Part shown: piece by piece, positions 1 to 11,899 of the stretch | Numbering within the stretch: position 1 is the stretch's first letter | Layout: each line of letters begins with the position of its first letter | Source of the DNA: Dehalococcoidia bacterium | GTDB lineage: Bacteria; Chloroflexota; Dehalococcoidia; UBA2979 | Length of the DNA stretch: 64,000 nt | Direction of reading: 5' to 3' | Assembly (NCBI GenBank): GCA_965262725.1 | Contig: OZ253555.1 | Span: forward strand, 1,952,001-2,016,000 | Notes under the pieces: generated by a model | What the model saw: the letters and a program-made list of their open reading frames with translations, nothing else | Told to the model about the DNA's origin: nothing | The model's database searches: none | Made by a program: the position numbers and the translations under genes

Positions 1-112
1 CGCACGTCTGCACGTCCAGCACCGGGACCTCATATGGATGCCTCGGTTGTCAAGCCCCGTCCAGCGGTACTTGAACGTCCGGTCTGCTGCGGCGGCGGTC
101 GCGCGAGGATGA

Positions 113-336
113 CGACTCCGGGGTGGCGAAGGAGGGATGAGCGGGAATTGTTCGACGTCTTGTCACTCTCATATTCGCGGGTTGCCAGTGGCAGAGCCGC
201 ATGACCCTTCTTCGTCAGGAGCAGGCGCATTCTGATATCGCGGGTTGGCGACGCGAAGCGTCGTTGCCGCATGGTTCCGTCGCGCAGTCTCCGAAACGTA
301 GTCCCGCTTATCCGTCCTTCACCGCCCCCGGAGTCG
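113..336 (-). ncRNA. putative bridge/seek RNA unit 2 (copy 1)
   Basis: Mirror of 6292-6515. Confidence 0.72.
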
Positions 337-613
337 AGGTCCCCGCCCTCCGCGGCCAGCTCCGCTGCATGCTCCTCACTCGCGGCGATGCCTGAGAGCC
401 CCTGCTCCGTCGGGCGGATGTGCTCATCCGTCATCTCGACCCTCTGCAGGTAGCTGCCGAAGGCCGCCTGGGCGCCCTTCTCCTGGAAGGAGAGGAAGCG
501 CGGACAGCGCCGGCGCTCGTGCGCCCAGCAGGACTTCCCATAATGGTGCCGCGCGAGCAGCGAGCACCCCGCCGACGGCTGCTGCGCCGTCTTGCGCGGC
601 CGCGCGAAGATGA

Positions 614-837
614 CGACTCCGGGGTGGCGAAGGAGGGATGAGCGGGAATCACTCGACGTTGTGTCACTCTCATAGTCGCGGGTTGCCAGTGGCAGAGCCG
701 CATGACCTTTCTTCGTCGGGAGGGGGCGCCGTCTGGGAACGCGGGTTGGCGACGCTTCGCGTCGTTGCCGCATGGTCCCGTCGCGCGATCTCCAGAATGT
801 GGTCCCGTTCATCCGTCCTTCACCGCCCCCGGAGTCG
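614..837 (-). ncRNA. putative bridge/seek RNA unit 1 (copy 1)
   Basis: Mirror of 5791-6014. Confidence 0.78.
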
Positions 838-903
838 ACGTCTCCGCCCTCCGCGGCCGGTCTGTCCTCCTCTCCGTCCGCTCCCTGTTCGTGGCCAGCC
901 GGC

Positions 904-2016
904 TCAGGCGGCCTGCTGCCGCTCTTCAGCGTGGGTGCGCAGCACCGCCCAGATGGCGGCGAGCAGCTCCCGCGCCACGGCCACGACGGCGACCTGCGAC
1001 GGCTTGCCTCGCTCCTTGAGATGCCGGTAGCGCCGGGACATCCGGGAACCGGTCTTGTCGGCCATCGCGACCGCCCAGCCCGGCTGGCCCTCCCGCCGTC
1101 TGCGCAGCGGCGCCCCGACGCGGTACGGGCGGATGCTGTGCCAGCCCGCCTCGACCAGCACGCGCCGGACGTGCTCGTTCCCCGTCTTGGTGATGCCGCC
1201 GCGCCGCGTCCTCGGGCCTGAGCTGTGCTCGCTCGCCACCAGCCCCACGTACGCTGCCAGCTGGTCGGGGCTTCCGAATCGCGTGATATCGCCGAGCTCG
1301 CCCAGGATCGTCATGGCGGTGACCGTGTCGATGCCGCGGAAGCAGCGGAGGAGTCCCGCCTCCGGCGCATACTCCTCACTCGCGACGATGTCTGAGAGCC
1401 TCTGCTCCATCAGGCGGATGTGTTCATCCGCCATCTCCACGCGCTGCAGGTAGCCGTCGAATGCCGCCTGGTCGCCCAGCTCCTCGAAGGAGAGCGAGCG
1501 CAGCCAGCACCGGTGCTCTCGGGTCCACGTAGACTTACCATAATGGTGGCCCGAGCGCAGCAGGAACCCCGACAGTTGCATCTGGGCCGTCTTGCGGGCC
1601 GCAACGGCGTCCTCGCGCCCACGGGTGAGGTTGCGCACAGATTCCTGCCGCTCAGTCGGCTGGTGCACCTCGGTGAGCAGTCCCGCGCGCAAGAGATGCG
1701 CCAGGTTCCGCGCGTCGCGGCGGTCCGTCTTGACGCGGTCTCCCGGCTTTGTGGGGATCAGCGCCGGCGCGATGACGCGGCAGTCGATCCCCTTCGCATC
1801 GAGAGTGCGCTTCAGCCCGAACCCGGTCGGGCCCGCCTCGTAGCAACAGACCACGGAATCCCCGGCCTCGCGGCGCAGTCGCCGCGCCAGCGCCGCCACG
1901 GACTTCGGCTCGTTGGCGAGCTGCCACTCTTCGGGCTTCTTCTCCCCGTGCAGAACGGAGACGTTGATCGTCCGCGCGTGCACGTCGAGGCCCACGTATA
2001 GCTTCGTCTGGTCCAT
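904..2016 (-). CDS. IS110 family transposase/recombinase
   Basis: N-terminal YVGLDVH, CYEAGPTG, KTDRRDA (DEDD); C-terminal GLVASEHSSG..GITKTGN. Confidence 0.96.
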   Translation of the reverse strand: MDQTKLYVGLDVHARTINVSVLHGEKKPEEWQLANEPKSVAALARRLRREAGDSVVCCYEAGPTGFGLKRTLDAKGIDCRVIAPALIPTKPGDRVKTDRRDARNLAHLLRAGLLTEVHQPTERQESVRNLTRGREDAVAARKTAQMQLSGFLLRSGHHYGKSTWTREHRCWLRSLSFEELGDQAAFDGYLQRVEMADEHIRLMEQRLSDIVASEEYAPEAGLLRCFRGIDTVTAMTILGELGDITRFGSPDQLAAYVGLVASEHSSGPRTRRGGITKTGNEHVRRVLVEAGWHSIRPYRVGAPLRRRREGQPGWAVAMADKTGSRMSRRYRHLKERGKPSQVAVVAVARELLAAIWAVLRTHAEERQQAA

Positions 2017-2939
2017 CTGGTCTGCCCCCTACCCCTTCCATGTTCCGGTCCGGTTCCGCTCCGATGTTGCACTCGGAACAGAAACCGACACCGGTTCTCA
2101 AGGTGTCGAGGCATCCATAGGGTCTGGGAGGGCTCGGCCTTGTCCCTGCGTGTTGCCACGCCGGGACCGCAACGGAAAGGGCGATTCCGTAATCCGTTGA
2201 CGCACGAGGTCGAGCAATCAGATCCGGCCATAGTAGTGATGAGGGCGGCGAACAAAGAGGAGTAGACACCCTCGGCGGAGTCGACGGAGCGAAGGGCCGG
2301 ACCGGAGGGGAAGCTGGCGAAGCCCGGCACTGGCGGGACACTGCGCCCGCGTTTGGTGTCACTCGGGCTACCCGGCTACGGCACCTCTTGGGTGCCGTCT
2401 GACCTGACGGAGGAGCCGTATGCGTTAACGCGCACGTACGGATCTGTCCGGGGGGCGGCCGGCAACGGCCGTCCCTACCGGAATTGCTCCCTGTGGCTGT
2501 GACGTGATTCGTTGAAAAACCATTGTCCCAGCTACAGCGGAGCACCCAACACCAGCCGCTCGCGCACTCTTCGTTCGGTTTCCGGTAGGGACGCCGGTTA
2601 CCCGGCGCCCCCCGGACAGATCCGTACGTGCGCGCTAGCGCATACGGCTCCTCTCCCGGGTATGACGGTCGGGGCTGAAACGCACCCTGCCGTATCGGCT
2701 CGGACTTCTTGTGCCACAGGTCACCCGGCTCAGTGTCCGGCCCATGTCGAGTCCTCGCAGATTCCCCGCGAGTCCGGCCCTTGGCTCCTCCGACTCCGCA
2801 GAGGCTCGCGCCCCCTTCTATGAGGGTCGTCTGATCCGCAAGGCCGACGTGGCGGCCTTCTGCGCCGTTCTACCGATCGCGCCTCCCGTCCGCAGCCCTG
2901 TGGTGGTTGTCGGTGCCGATGCGAGTGGTGCCGCCGTCT

Positions 2940-3100
2940 TGTCCCCGGGACGTTGTGGTGACCGTGCTTCTATTCGCACTCGTCGAGGGGCCGCTCCGGG
3001 CCCGGTGCATGATGATCAGCCTGTCTCCAGGGTGTGGGCGCTGCCATCTTGTTCCCGTCCTCGTTGGGACCAGGGGGTTCCGCAGTCGCCCGCGTGTCGG
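2940..3100 (-). ncRNA. putative bridge/seek RNA of IS element B (boundaries approximate)
   Basis: Guide-like segments CCCCCT and GAACAAG match the target; TCATC and ATAGAAG match the circle junction. Confidence 0.65.
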
Positions 3101-3163
3101 CATCTCTCGTATCCTCCGAAGCCCACCGGCCGCCCGGTCGCCTCGCTCCTCGCGTGCTGTCTG

Positions 3164-4255
3164 CTACGCCGCCTCGGCCGCGCGCGCGTGGCGCAACGGC
3201 TCGTAGACCTCCCCGCTCTTCCAGAGCGCAAGCATCAGCACCGCCAGTCGCCTCGCGACCGCGACGACGGCACGCTTCTTCGCATTGCCGGCCCCCGACT
3301 CCGCGTAACGCAGCCCCCACCTGCGGAGGTCGCTGTCGGGGCCGAAGGGGCCCAGGATGTAGTGCGCGGCCTGGTTCAGCACCCGGCGCAGCGCCACGTC
3401 CCCTTCCTTCGTGATCCGCAGCTGGGGCTGCCGATCACCGGAATCGCGGCTCCGGGGCACCAGCCCCAGGTAGGGCCCCACCTCCCTGTTCTTGGGGAAG
3501 CGGGCCGGGTCCTCGATGGTGAGGATGAAGGTGAGCGAGGTGATCGGGCCGACGCCCACGATCTGCCGCAGCGCGCCGGTCTCCGCGTAGCGCTCGCACA
3601 TCGCGGCGAACTTCTTGTCGGCCTGGCGGATCTCCCCGGTCAGCTGCTCGATCTGGTGGAGCACCGGCAGCAGCGCCGGGCCCAGCTCCTCGGGGATGTG
3701 CTCTCTGACCGCGCGGTGGAAGGCCGGCGCCGTGCAGCCCGGAAGCGCCGCGCCCCACGCCTTCACCGCGCCCCGGACGTGGTTGATGAACATCGTGCGC
3801 GCCCGGACCAGCGCCTCGCGGCTGCGGAGCACCTGGAGGTCCGCCTGCGCCATGGCGCTTCGGTGCCGGATGGGGAAGAGGAGCGCCGGGTCGAATCGGC
3901 CGAGCCGTGCGAGGTGCTCGGCATCGGAGCGGTCGGTCTTGCGCTGGCTGCGCGCGATCAGCCTGACCTGCCTCGGGTTGGCGACGATCACGTCGTGACC
4001 GAGCTCCGCGAACATCCGGCTCAGCCACGGGGACCGCGGCCCCACCTCCATCACCACCCGGGCGCCCTGCAGTGGGGTGAGCGCCCGCGTGAGCGCCGCG
4101 GTCGTGGTGCGGACTCGCTCCTCCCGCACGATCTCCCCGTCGCCACCGAGGACGCAGAGGTGGCTGTAGCGGTCGCTGACGTCGATGCCGACAGTCACGA
4201 GCTCCGCATCCCCCACCTTCCTGCTCTCTGTGACATCTGATGTACGCTGTGCCAC
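3164..4255 (-). CDS. IS110 family transposase (IS1111 group)
   Basis: VGIDVSD, VMEVG, KTDRSDA, GLVPRSRDSG..ITKEGD; GTG start after AGGAG. Confidence 0.94.
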   Translation of the reverse strand: MAQRTSDVTESRKVGDAELVTVGIDVSDRYSHLCVLGGDGEIVREERVRTTTAALTRALTPLQGARVVMEVGPRSPWLSRMFAELGHDVIVANPRQVRLIARSQRKTDRSDAEHLARLGRFDPALLFPIRHRSAMAQADLQVLRSREALVRARTMFINHVRGAVKAWGAALPGCTAPAFHRAVREHIPEELGPALLPVLHQIEQLTGEIRQADKKFAAMCERYAETGALRQIVGVGPITSLTFILTIEDPARFPKNREVGPYLGLVPRSRDSGDRQPQLRITKEGDVALRRVLNQAAHYILGPFGPDSDLRRWGLRYAESGAGNAKKRAVVAVARRLAVLMLALWKSGEVYEPLRHARAAEAA

Positions 4256-4611
4256 GGTCGGTCTCCTACCTCTCTCGGCTCGCCTGAGCCGTTCTCCTGG
4301 GCCACCACGTGAGCCCGTGCTTGGAGGGGAAGTATCCCCTCTGAGGAGGGGACCGACCCTCATGTCATCTTGTTCGCCGGTCTCACAGCTACTATGGCCG
4401 AATCAGATTGCTTCACGGCGTACATCAGCGGCGTACGGCTTCTACCTTCCCGCTGCGGCCCCCCCGACAGGAACTGTCACAGGGGCACCGTGGAGCCCTC
4501 CCAGACCCTATGGATGCCTCGACACCTTGAGAACCGGTGTCGGTTTCTGTTCCGAGTGCAACATCGGAGCGGAACCGGACCGGAACATGGAAGGGGTAGG
4601 GGGCAGACCAG

Positions 4612-5724
4612 ATGGACCAGACGAAGCTATACGTGGGCCTCGACGTGCACGCGCGGACGATCAACGTCTCCGTTCTGCACGGGGAGAAGAAGCCCGAAGA
4701 GTGGCAGCTCGCCAACGAGCCGAAGTCCGTGGCGGCGCTGGCGCGGCGACTGCGCCGCGAGGCCGGGGATTCCGTGGTCTGTTGCTACGAGGCGGGCCCG
4801 ACCGGGTTCGGGCTGAAGCGCACTCTCGATGCGAAGGGGATCGACTGCCGCGTCATCGCGCCGGCGCTGATCCCCACAAAGCCGGGAGACCGCGTCAAGA
4901 CGGACCGCCGCGACGCGCGGAACCTGGCGCATCTCTTGCGCGCGGGACTGCTCACCGAGGTGCACCAGCCGACTGAGCGGCAGGAATCTGTGCGCAACCT
5001 CACCCGTGGGCGCGAGGACGCCGTTGCGGCCCGCAAGACGGCCCAGATGCAACTGTCGGGGTTCCTGCTGCGCTCGGGCCACCATTATGGTAAGTCTACG
5101 TGGACCCGAGAGCACCGGTGCTGGCTGCGCTCGCTCTCCTTCGAGGAGCTGGGCGACCAGGCGGCATTCGACGGCTACCTGCAGCGCGTGGAGATGGCGG
5201 ATGAACACATCCGCCTGATGGAGCAGAGGCTCTCAGACATCGTCGCGAGTGAGGAGTATGCGCCGGAGGCGGGACTCCTCCGCTGCTTCCGCGGCATCGA
5301 CACGGTCACCGCCATGACGATCCTGGGCGAGCTCGGCGATATCACGCGATTCGGAAGCCCCGACCAGCTGGCAGCGTACGTGGGGCTGGTGGCGAGCGAG
5401 CACAGCTCAGGCCCGAGGACGCGGCGCGGCGGCATCACCAAGACGGGGAACGAGCACGTCCGGCGCGTGCTGGTCGAGGCGGGCTGGCACAGCATCCGCC
5501 CGTACCGCGTCGGGGCGCCGCTGCGCAGACGGCGGGAGGGCCAGCCGGGCTGGGCGGTCGCGATGGCCGACAAGACCGGTTCCCGGATGTCCCGGCGCTA
5601 CCGGCATCTCAAGGAGCGAGGCAAGCCGTCGCAGGTCGCCGTCGTGGCCGTGGCGCGGGAGCTGCTCGCCGCCATCTGGGCGGTGCTGCGCACCCACGCT
5701 GAAGAGCGGCAGCAGGCCGCCTGA
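4612..5724 (+). CDS. IS110 family transposase/recombinase
   Basis: Identical protein to 904..2016. Confidence 0.96.
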   Translation: MDQTKLYVGLDVHARTINVSVLHGEKKPEEWQLANEPKSVAALARRLRREAGDSVVCCYEAGPTGFGLKRTLDAKGIDCRVIAPALIPTKPGDRVKTDRRDARNLAHLLRAGLLTEVHQPTERQESVRNLTRGREDAVAARKTAQMQLSGFLLRSGHHYGKSTWTREHRCWLRSLSFEELGDQAAFDGYLQRVEMADEHIRLMEQRLSDIVASEEYAPEAGLLRCFRGIDTVTAMTILGELGDITRFGSPDQLAAYVGLVASEHSSGPRTRRGGITKTGNEHVRRVLVEAGWHSIRPYRVGAPLRRRREGQPGWAVAMADKTGSRMSRRYRHLKERGKPSQVAVVAVARELLAAIWAVLRTHAEERQQAA

Positions 5725-5790
5725 GCCGGCTGGCCACGAACAGGGAGCGGACGGAGAGGAGGACAGACCGGCCGCGGAGGGCGGAGACGT

Positions 5791-6014
5791 CGACTCCGGG
5801 GGCGGTGAAGGACGGATGAACGGGACCACATTCTGGAGATCGCGCGACGGGACCATGCGGCAACGACGCGAAGCGTCGCCAACCCGCGTTCCCAGACGGC
5901 GCCCCCTCCCGACGAAGAAAGGTCATGCGGCTCTGCCACTGGCAACCCGCGACTATGAGAGTGACACAACGTCGAGTGATTCCCGCTCATCCCTCCTTCG
6001 CCACCCCGGAGTCG
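5791..6014 (+). ncRNA. putative bridge/seek RNA unit 1
   Basis: Closing stem CGACTCCGGGG/CCCCGGAGTCG; two loops with scaffold guide-ATGCGG-hairpin-AACCCGCG-guide whose guides match target and donor. Confidence 0.78.
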
Positions 6015-6029
6015 TCATCTTCGCGCGGC

Positions 6030-6265
6030 CGCGCAAGACGGCGCAGCAGCCGTCGGCGGGGTGCTCGCTGCTCGCGCGGCACCATTATGGGAAGTCCTGC
6101 TGGGCGCACGAGCGCCGGCGCTGTCCGCGCTTCCTCTCCTTCCAGGAGAAGGGCGCCCAGGCGGCCTTCGGCAGCTACCTGCAGAGGGTCGAGATGACGG
6201 ATGAGCACATCCGCCCGACGGAGCAGGGGCTCTCAGGCATCGCCGCGAGTGAGGAGCATGCAGCG
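6030..6265 (+). pseudogene. degenerate internal fragment of a related IS110 transposase
   Basis: HHYGKS..YLQRVEMTDEHIR..EQ.LS.IAASEE resembles ~5030-5265. Confidence 0.8.
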
Positions 6266-6291
6266 GAGCTGGCCGCGGAGGGCGGGGACCT

Positions 6292-6515
6292 CGACTCCGG
6301 GGGCGGTGAAGGACGGATAAGCGGGACTACGTTTCGGAGACTGCGCGACGGAACCATGCGGCAACGACGCTTCGCGTCGCCAACCCGCGATATCAGAATG
6401 CGCCTGCTCCTGACGAAGAAGGGTCATGCGGCTCTGCCACTGGCAACCCGCGAATATGAGAGTGACAAGACGTCGAACAATTCCCGCTCATCCCTCCTTC
6501 GCCACCCCGGAGTCG
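6292..6515 (+). ncRNA. putative bridge/seek RNA unit 2 (different target guides)
   Basis: Diverged copy of unit 1, offset 501 nt; donor guides conserved, target guides CGGAACC/ATATCAG. Confidence 0.72.
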
Positions 6516-6899
6516 TCATCCTCGCGCGACCGCCGCCGCAGCAGACCGGACGTTCAAGTACCGCTGGACGGGGCTTGACAACCGAGGCATCCATATGAGG
6601 TCCCGGCGATAGACGTGTGCGCGTGCATGGGGTTCTTCGACACCGTGGGGCCCGACCACGACTCGCCAATAGCGCCGTCGCCGGTATTGCCTTCGACCAA
6701 TCCAAAAGCCTCGACACCCCAAATGGCCCTTTCGATGCTCATTAGCCCCGCCCGCACACCCCGCTGCCGACGCTTCACAAGCCGCCTCGCGACGACCCGC
6801 GCACGGCTCGCGGAATGACATGAGTGGCTAACTCTTTGCCATAGAGGACTTCCACCTCCTGCCTACTCGCCAGTTAGCCTGGCGCTCTGGATCAGGGCT

Positions 6900-11037: not shown

Positions 11038-11899
11038 GTGCGTCCGGAAGTCGAAGGGGTGGTGACGTGATGACGTGACCGGTCCGGAGACATGCTCGTT
11101 GCTGCCAGCCGGTGAGAGTCCGGCACGGGTAACTGTCAGGAGGCCCGTTAGCAGGTCGGCGGCGTGGACGGGAAACGGTCTGCGTCGAAGCCCGACGTCA
11201 AGAGCCCTATGAGGGGGAGCAAACGTGCGGTCCGCAGCATGACGCGAAGTCTGCCGCGCCGTGAGACTCGCCTGTCTATTGACAGGACCAAGGAGGAGCC
11301 GAGCCCGGGTGGTCAGGGCGAAGGCCATGGACGAGGTGAAGATCCTGGAATGCAGCCTCAAGAAACCTCCCGGCGTATGGGACGTGGAACGTACGGAAGG
11401 TAGCGACGGGAACCGGAGAAGCCCTCCCCGGCCCGGCACCCTGTGAGAGGGCGTCGGAGCGAGGCGTCCTATAACCGGTCAGAGCCGGGAAGTGGACAGC
11501 CAGCCGGAAGGGTGGCGGAGGGGGTCGTAGTACCGCTGGAGCCGGACGGACAACATAACCGCCGGTGATGGGAAGGACCCCTACTTTGTCCGTGCATGTT
11601 GCTGGGGGTGTGGACTGGTGAGTGCCCCTCGGGGCTAGCAACCACTTGGTAGGGTTCGAGGCTCTCCGCACATGCTGTACCGGCTGGCCAAGGCACGACC
11701 CACGTTGTGGGGAGCGCTGCATGCCATCTGGTGAAGGGCATCGGTGAGCCGGATGAGGGAGAACCTCACGTCCGGTTCGATGTGGCAGGGGCTGGAGACG
11801 GACGCTGCTATGGCCGTGGAGTTGGGCACCACCGGGAAACCGGCTTGGAACTGATGCGCCACCGCCTACGGCTCGCACCGCGCCAGCCCCTGACCCTAC
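11038..11899 (+). ncRNA. ORF-less group II intron C
   Basis: 5' GTGCG; GGTGAGAGTCC; GTAGTACC..GGGAAGG; domain V GAGCCGGATGAGGGAGAACCTCACGTCCGGTTC; 3' CCCTAC. Confidence 0.88.

Follow-up and report, generated by a model that had tools for sequence, protein, structure and literature searches.

An IS1111-type insertion sequence of a Dehalococcoidia bacterium, very probably aimed by RNA at a conserved motif of group II introns

We analysed a window of 64,000 nt from the genome of a Dehalococcoidia bacterium (GenBank assembly GCA_965262725.1, contig OZ253555.1; G000:C1:1952001-2016000 in our numbering) and studied in it a mobile element, element B, which occupies window positions 2815-4370 on the minus strand (1554 bp) and lies inside a group II intron. 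The genome is a single contig of 3.67 Mb with 70.6% G+C. Element B belongs to the IS110 family and is intact and of IS1111 type; it is very probably a recently active insertion sequence whose choice of site is guided by RNA to a conserved motif of group II introns. Read on the minus strand, the element and its flanks run GGCGAACA-AG-ATGAC-ATGAGGGTCG ... CGACCCTCAT-AGA-AG-GGGGCG. Four full-length copies are present in the genome, 100% identical at BLAST resolution and with an uninterrupted open reading frame (ORF), together with one interrupted sibling and fragments, and 4/4 full copies use the same intron site with identical junctions. The empty site, the 16-mer GGCGAACAAGGGGGCG, occurs 10 times in the genome (11 times if one mismatch is allowed), and every occurrence lies in copies of one repeat, the intron family fam1. 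Moreover, contigs from 4/4 public runs (four studies) connect window position 2814 straight to 4369, skipping 1554 nt with three shared letters. Thus an empty form of the same window intron exists elsewhere, and the limits of B are exact within the shared letters; because the junctions are identical in all four copies, the 16-mer sites are uninterrupted and the empty form is seen in contigs, the boundaries of the element are fixed. The features of the element and its surroundings are as follows (window coordinates).

4371..4479, minus strand: intron sequence upstream of B, ending in the left target half ...GGCGAACA.
4369..4370, minus strand: left-end core dinucleotide AG, common to element and target; AG is present once in the empty site and at each end in the filled one, and the contig joint has three ambiguous letters.
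4364..4368, minus strand: left-end extension ATGAC of 5 nt, the donor-right sequence predicted to be read by the 5' strand of the donor loop.
4354..4363, minus strand: left sub-terminal inverted repeat ATGAGGGTCG, 10 nt, conserved in homologues.
3164..4258, minus strand: transposase gene, 364 aa, with a likely GTG start at 4258, AGGAGA before the start, the motif GLVPRSRDSG and no stops in the translation.
2817..3163, minus strand: 3' non-coding region of 347 nt, encoding a putative seekRNA or bridge RNA.
3036..3091, minus strand: target-binding loop, with basal stem GGGCGACUGCG / GCAGCGCCC, 5' strand AACCCCCU, a hairpin at 3070-3057 and 3' strand GAACAAG, followed by AUG.
2962..3019, minus strand: donor-binding loop, with 5' strand GAUCAUCAU, stem GCAC / GUGC around the hairpin GGGCC-CGGAGC-GGCCC, and 3' strand GAAUAGAAG.
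2836..2841, minus strand: -35-like hexamer TTGCGG, 21 nt from the element end, a candidate promoter half that would be completed only in a circle.
2820..2829, minus strand: right sub-terminal inverted repeat CGACCCTCAT, 10 nt.
2815..2819, minus strand: right-end extension AGA of 3 nt (2819-2817) and core AG (2816-2815).
2580..2814, minus strand: intron sequence downstream of B, opening with the right target half GGGGCG... and ending with domains V/VI (RF00029, 36 bits at 2580-2652).

Folding of the 347-nt region 3' of the gene (the 5' non-coding region measures ~109 nt) showed two internal loops. In the first, the motifs CCCCCT (3077-3072) and GAACAAG (3054-3048) enclose the hairpin GUCC-CAACGA-GGAC. 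Its 5' strand (CCCCCU) is complementary to the top strand AG-GGGG of the target, and its 3' strand GAACAAG has the same sense as the top strand GAACA-AG and hence pairs with the bottom strand. The AUG behind the core is identical to the first three letters of the left end of B, and relatives mostly match two of the three. The second loop carries TCATC (3015-3011) and ATAGAAG (2973-2967), and its 3' strand GAAUAGAAG has the same sense as the right end CATAGA-AG. The basal stems of both loops were kept in 18/18 sequences, and the 8-bp stem of the target loop has two pairs changed on both sides in distant relatives. When the 347-nt region was resampled 200000 times under a first-order Markov model, 20 resamples contained the target pair and 29 the donor pair, and none contained both. 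The original prediction, made from the letters of the window, had described the end geometry (AG, 5 nt, inverted repeat ... inverted repeat, 3 nt, AG), the placement of B at GGCGAACA-AG-GGGGCG of the intron, a match of CCCCCT and GAACAAG around a hairpin to the target, and a match of TCATC and ATAGAAG to the joined ends CATAGA-AG / ATGAC; every one of these motifs was found at its coordinates, and the guides covary with the flanks, and the donor loop with the element ends, across homologues.

This covariation, which the original prediction had proposed as a check, carries most of the argument. Relatives were gathered by protein (22 loci), to which 9/99 genomes of the order added a match; L numbers below denote loci of relatives and G numbers other genomes (G078, G079, G081), G000 being the window genome. 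Of 37 unique rows parsed, 21 had both flanks and represent 14 guide variants. Cognate pairs of guide and flank scored on average 9.1 of 13, compared with 4.6 in 273 non-cognate pairings; scores of 10 or more were reached by 12/21 cognate and 1/273 non-cognate pairings, and when guide sets were shuffled at the level of variants, 0/20000 permutations reached the observed sum. Single cases show the same letter by letter. The transposase of L021 is 94% identical to that of B and its non-coding region is nearly that of the window, with target-loop strands CGCGAACU / CACUCAG and the site CCACCC-AG-TTCGCGCG. The window genome's own interrupted sibling, 92-96% identical, carries ACGGAAGCU / CCCUCAG as guides and lies at GCCTCCCTC-AG-CTTCCGCACG, as its guides predict, with no intron match near that site. 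L022-L024, with guides CGACCACU / CAGGUAG, lie at (C/G)AGGT-AG-TGGT(C/A)CG, one copy being off-target on the right. In public run X1 a variant contig over 2985-3149 (165 nt) differs from the window at 16 letters, 13 of them in three guide strands, including 3045-3054 and 3074-3079 of the target loop and 3015, 3016 and 3019 of the donor loop. The distant elements L033, L037 and L038 (48-60% identical) show the same pattern of guide and flank by eye. As for the donor loop, its 3' strand AAU[A/G]GAAG follows the right end CAT[A/G]GA-AG in all aligned groups, and its 5' strand goes with letters four and five of the left-end extension, L021 being an exception; the fourth letter covaries with the RNA as A/U in the window and G/C in L022 and L005, L021 again excepted. 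The arms of the inverted repeats also change in compensating fashion (ATGAGAGTCG / CGACTCTCAT in L022). The original prediction had named homologues carrying these guides mostly outside introns as what would speak against it; the elements that bear the window guides lie in introns in 4/4 cases and outside introns in none, and the 51-nt target-loop pattern of the window variant was found in 0/98 other genomes of the family.

The protein is of the kind that such guides would serve. It matches PF01548 with 69.8 bits (cut-off 29) and PF02371 with 65.2 bits (cut-off 21.3), corresponding to an N-terminal DEDD/RuvC-like domain and a C-terminal Transposase_20 domain, and passes the NCBIfam model NF033542, 'IS110 family RNA-guided transposase', with 215 bits against a cut-off of 140. 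Matches to the IS621 and ISCro4 transposases in PDB have E-values of 1e-9 to 1e-10. The conserved-serine motif G--P----S(T)G is present as GLVPRSRDSG, and its catalytic role is predicted from the motif. Counted from the chosen, unverified GTG start, the protein has 364 aa, compared with 330-350 aa for the IS1111 group; its close relatives come from metagenome-assembled genomes of Dehalococcoidia. The hexamer near the right end, as TTGCGG, TTGCAG, TTGACG or TTGACA, is kept at the same distance from the end in 16/16 aligned elements, and by analogy with the family it is a candidate half of a promoter formed at the junction of a circular form; a scan of 2700-4500 for promoters and terminators found none of either in the linear element.

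In the mechanism that we propose, RNA from the 347-nt region downstream of the gene, which by analogy with the family the transposase probably binds, would guide this DEDD/serine enzyme. The 3' strand GAACAAG of the target loop would pair with the bottom strand to the left of the core and including it (GAACA-AG), and the donor loop, with UCAUC and AUAGAAG, would read the junction CATAGA-AG-ATGAC that forms when the ends join in a circle; the predicted circle junction is ...CCCTCATAGA-AG-ATGACATGAGGG... Recombination at the common AG core would then place B at GGCGAACA-AG-GGGGCG. The circular intermediate, the junction promoter and the chemistry of strand exchange are likewise modelled on what is known of the family. 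The most likely reason for the choice of an intron, again by analogy with IS1111-type elements aimed at repeats of other mobile DNA, is that it offers a multi-copy, dispensable site, so that insertion would be cheap for the host.

At least 14 copies of the target sequence exist in the genome, within a conserved stem-loop of the group II intron family. The 11-mer GAACAAGGGGG has 11 unfilled occurrences, 10 in introns and one elsewhere. Among the 12 full-length fam1 introns 16 columns are variable, and 0/16 are private to the three copies filled with B; two of the filled introns differ at 11/16 of these columns, and one filled copy groups with empty introns. The B site is also filled in a second intron family, only ~72-75% like the first around the site. 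Because two intron families are filled and the filled fam1 copies share no private variant, at least three insertions of B were independent; one of the three fam1 copies of B could have been made together with its intron.

Several observations weigh against guided insertion, or lower the weight of the evidence for it. The pairing of the guide is short (six and seven letters with the core included), and the one GAACAAGGGGG outside introns (genome 2481572) stays empty. Among the parsed rows, 16/37 had no flank and were excluded from the covariation count, and the relatives are kin, so that the permutation overstates their independence. Some cognate scores are low (4 of 13 for L034 and L031, 3-4 of 13 for L050 and L066), the 5' guide strand of L025 and L048 is shifted by one letter, and L033, L037, L038 and L055 were unparsed and judged by eye only. 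L021 breaks the covariation of the donor-loop 5' strand. The left end of L035, a degenerate copy of a B-like element from another genome, lies at the intron site of B as well, but its guides do not match; L035 is either a decayed or a recombined copy. No Rfam family matches 2815-3163, even with E up to 1. Two public RNA runs gave no contig over 2822-3065, which is no evidence of absence; their contigs cover the empty form instead.

Three other explanations were weighed against these data. That B spread within the intron by retrohoming, the guide matches having no bearing on copy number, is very unlikely. It would account for three of the four copies lying in introns that are 99.4-99.9% identical, for two of these introns differing at only 3/16 variable columns, so that one could have been copied with its intron, and for B lying on the strand of the intron. 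However, the fourth copy occupies another intron family (similarity ~72-75% around the site), the B-filled introns have no private variant and one of them groups with empty introns, and 10 empty sister introns remain. Moreover, retrohoming explains neither the match of guides and site nor the covariation of guides and flanks in relatives, and if the site lies in a catalytic domain, an intron with a 1.5-kb insert may be immobile. Hitchhiking with the intron as the sole cause of the spread was rejected on the haplotype table of the fam1 introns. We consider it still less probable that the protein selects the site, or that a DNA structure such as a hairpin of the intron DNA does, with the non-coding matches due to chance or to another role, e.g. 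as terminator or binding site. The guide matches are short, no RNA was seen and the target overlaps a predicted stem-loop, and the title of a 2026 preprint reportedly attributes a 'sequence-structure dual-match logic' to an IS110 element. But chance did not give both motif pairs together in any of 200000 resamples, the letters that change between near-identical elements are those of the guide strands, in step with the flanks, and RNA guidance has been shown experimentally for four IS1111-type elements.

The remaining alternative, that B is a dead relic whose placement records an old event only, is hardly credible. No circle junction was found among the contigs (no back-joint in those of four runs over 2700-4500), a result that is uninformative either way, as contigs drop rare forms. 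Against a relic stand the four copies, 100% identical at BLAST resolution with an uninterrupted ORF, and the polymorphism of the insertion, an empty form of the same intron being present in 4/4 other runs. An insertion sequence that was recently active and found its site by RNA thus remains the preferred reading.

The intron that hosts B in the window lies on the minus strand from ~6887 to ~2580, has no ORF and is interrupted twice, by B and by a second insertion sequence, element A (4503-6599). It matches RF02005 (D1-D4) with 170 bits at 6631-6852 (minus strand; intron copies range from 152 to 170 bits), and RF00029 (D5/D6) with 36 bits at 2580-2652 (minus strand), just below the gathering score of 40 bits (window copies 36-39 bits). 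Full-length sister introns have an RVT_1 reverse transcriptase ORF (126 bits), which the window copy lacks. The family fam1 is a 1.93-kb group II intron (RF02005, 170 bits, RVT_1 ORF) with 12 full-length copies of 99.4-99.9% identity, of which three carry B and two an unrelated insertion of 1328 nt. This 1328-nt element breaks the reverse transcriptase ORF of the two introns at points 29 nt apart and in opposite orientations (G000:C1 ~1522774-1524987 and 1876117-1877442). Similarity to fam1 shows the window intron to be a mosaic, with 98% in the 5' part and only 72-75% around and after B, where the sequence is unique in the genome. In a second ORF-less intron family, fam2, AA stands in place of the AG core along with two more changes, and B is absent. 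In 5/5 aligned intron variants CGGCGAACAA is retained, as is most of the motif's right half.

The B site lies ~150 nt past the D1-D4 match and ~125 nt before the GTG that precedes the reverse transcriptase motifs. In an alignment fold of five intron variants it falls in a stem-loop between the first multi-branch domain and the ORF, with an outer helix that changes on both sides between families, and the 5' side of its apical hairpin consists of the right target half. This modelled stem-loop may belong to domain III or to the start or base of domain IV. The reading frame is open across the B site, which may therefore lie within an N-terminal extension of the intron protein; ORF-less intron variants that keep the motif speak against this. 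Two metatranscriptome runs (two studies) cover the empty form of the ORF-less intron (2700-2814 and 4369-4500) at depths of 62.7 and 11.7. The ORF-less intron may be transcribed in those samples, DNA carry-over being the alternative. Another ORF-less intron, of a different Rfam type, lies at window 11106-11899 on the plus strand (RF02003, 102.8 bits; RF00029, 37.5 bits).

Element A (plus strand, 2097 bp) encodes a transposase of 370 aa. The original prediction had called A and B unrelated; in fact their transposases are 29% identical (E 7e-23) and belong to one family. Its other statement, that two recombinases aim at conserved intron motifs, held for both, since A lies at its own site, GAGCCCTCCC-AG-GTCCCGG of introns, in 4/4 copies, 20-30 nt past the D1-D4 match, with a loop CGGGACC / UUCCCAG that fits this site, and B does likewise. 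Element A holds two tandem modules that resemble target loops (starting at ~5841 and ~6342), with repeats (5770-6032 and 6271-6533) that are 88% alike, and between the modules lies a 237-nt piece 79% like part of A's own transposase gene. The first module fits the intron site of A; from the second one would expect ATATC-AG-GTTCCG, a site with a single, empty occurrence in the genome (~2411055). Two inverted copies of A, 99% identical (window 2-2148 and 4480-6626, with 23 and 27 nt of flank), enclose 2.3 kb with B. The mosaic window intron with its inverted A copies fits recombination or inversion between the copies.

A third programme was seen in L054, a B-clade element (88-89% identical) of the sister genome G079, which lies antisense at intron positions 10-12, GAGCGCCAGG-CT-ACCTGG; CAGUU-AG and AG-CCUGAC (DNA sense), the guides of this element, agree with CCAGG-CT-AACTGG, the 5' motif usual in these introns. 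The intron that hosts L054 lies within sequence resembling domain I of another intron, and may be a twintron. Three separate programmes (B, A and the L054 type) therefore target this intron family. The idea of a guild of intron-targeting IS110 elements was borne out in that A, B and the L054 type do lie in introns, and must be cut down in size: intron sequence adjoins only 8/25 of the genome's IS110-type DEDD matches, namely four copies each of A and B, and 12 of the 14 parsed guide variants of the B clade lie at sites where no intron was found. The one of these sites that was characterised, CGCCGGGCAG-AG-TGGGTGAGCC, lies inside an IS1380-family element. The 23-nt intron motif was present in 8/99 genomes, and all eight also have B-like transposases.

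Introns were also found inside insertion sequences. At 3/11 loci examined, introns of G081 and G079 that are 83-84% similar to fam1 are preceded by a 5' exon that is the left end of a B-clade element read antisense (...CCGGCCCTCATGCCA|GAGCG...), and are followed by a 3' exon made up of a leftover T, the core and the old flank of that element. By coordinates, 7/9 intron motif matches in G081 lie exactly 545 nt from a B-clade transposase gene, and at least one such intron exists in G079. In L096 and L102 (G081), L095 and L044 (G079) and L058 (G078), fam1-related introns sit in the left-end extension of B-clade elements, between A and T of AG-A^TGGC, and thus inside the sequence that the donor loop must read. 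In the window genome fam1 introns home into the terminal repeats of an IS1380-type element (...ATCCA^CCGAA), a site that resembles this left end. The ~95 nt between two converging introns of the window (2485-2579; see also loci L085 and L086) are the end of such an element, a 1.66-kb member of the IS1380 family with a 441-aa transposase (NF033539, 338 bits), and the 97-nt end of this element is found without an intron in at least 14 places. Among further B-clade elements, L026, L028, L030 and L071 have two or three tandem right ends, 59-64 nt or more apart, some of them joined to the element's own non-coding region at target-like sites, which suggests self-targeted or half-site recombination. 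The Actinobacteria sRNA family Ms_AS-4 of Rfam gave 64-67 bits ~1 kb from three B-clade elements (L027 4836-4917, L071 3837-3918, L048 605-686).

Whether the two kinds of element prey on each other in this group of Dehalococcoidia, with IS1111-type guides repeatedly rewritten to the motifs of one group II intron family (B, A and the L054 type) and the introns in turn homing into the left-end extension of that clade of insertion sequences, is a speculation that we hold to be rather unlikely. If the nesting is more than a pile-up, it would be a conflict of two selfish elements with RNA-guided retargeting as the weapon, or alternatively a partnership: splicing would remove an intron-borne element from host transcripts, and that element may travel along with its intron. 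With insertion sequences in introns here and introns in insertion sequences in the sister genomes, conflict and cooperation of selfish elements become testable in a simple system. Element B itself is a landing-pad case, the putative guide RNA of one mobile element being written for a spot inside another. It is also a clean natural case of retargeting by guide exchange, as near-identical elements of this genome and of its relatives differ almost only in their loop letters and each lies where those letters point, and the 14 pairs of guide and target, with their mismatches and one-letter shifts of register, form a small natural data set on tolerance in this branch of the family.

In the parts of the published accounts that we draw on, the IS1111 group is marked by inverted repeats of 7-17 bp in sub-terminal position, short extensions at the termini and a non-coding region that is longer 3' of the gene (PMC11208160; PMC11187229). 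Element B shares with ISEc11, ISPa11, ISKpn4 and ISPst6 (Siddiquee et al. 2024, PMC11187229) the DEDD transposase, the motif GL-P----SG, sub-terminal repeats with extensions and the long 3' non-coding region, and, like the IS1111 seekRNAs described there, its predicted RNA carries the match to the top strand 5' of that to the bottom strand, with an overlap where the element inserts. The targets given in that account are repeats of other genetic elements (REP, attC), and the natural redirection by exchange of guide letters that it describes for ISEc11 and ISXne4 is met here in window B and L021. Unlike the elements described there, B targets a group II intron, has a transposase of 364 aa, counted from the chosen start, rather than 330-350 aa and is known from its sequence alone. 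As in the bridge RNA of IS621 (Durrant et al. 2024, PMC11208160; Hiraizumi et al. 2024, PMC11208158), a target loop and a donor loop each read both strands with a 2-nt core, and the AUG beside the core of the target loop recalls the 'handshake guides' of IS621 (PMC11208158). In contrast, IS621 encodes its RNA in the left end, 5' of the gene, and B would encode it 3' of the gene; the sub-terminal repeats of B are long, unlike those of IS621, and the order of top and bottom guides is reversed, as published for the IS110 and IS1111 groups. Similarity between the B and IS621 proteins is confined to the C-terminal domain (E 2e-9).

IS4321 and IS5075 are said to aim at the terminal repeats of Tn21-type transposons, and another IS1111 group at attC. 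Like B, these elements use a conserved multi-copy sequence of another mobile element, but they hit a transposon end or an integron recombination site, whereas B hits the interior of a self-splicing intron. A full-text search of the literature, with supplementary target tables outside its reach, found no paper in which an IS110/IS1111 element targets a group II intron. Siddiquee et al. 2024 and Durrant et al. 2024 have described the mechanism that we propose for B; what is new is the target.

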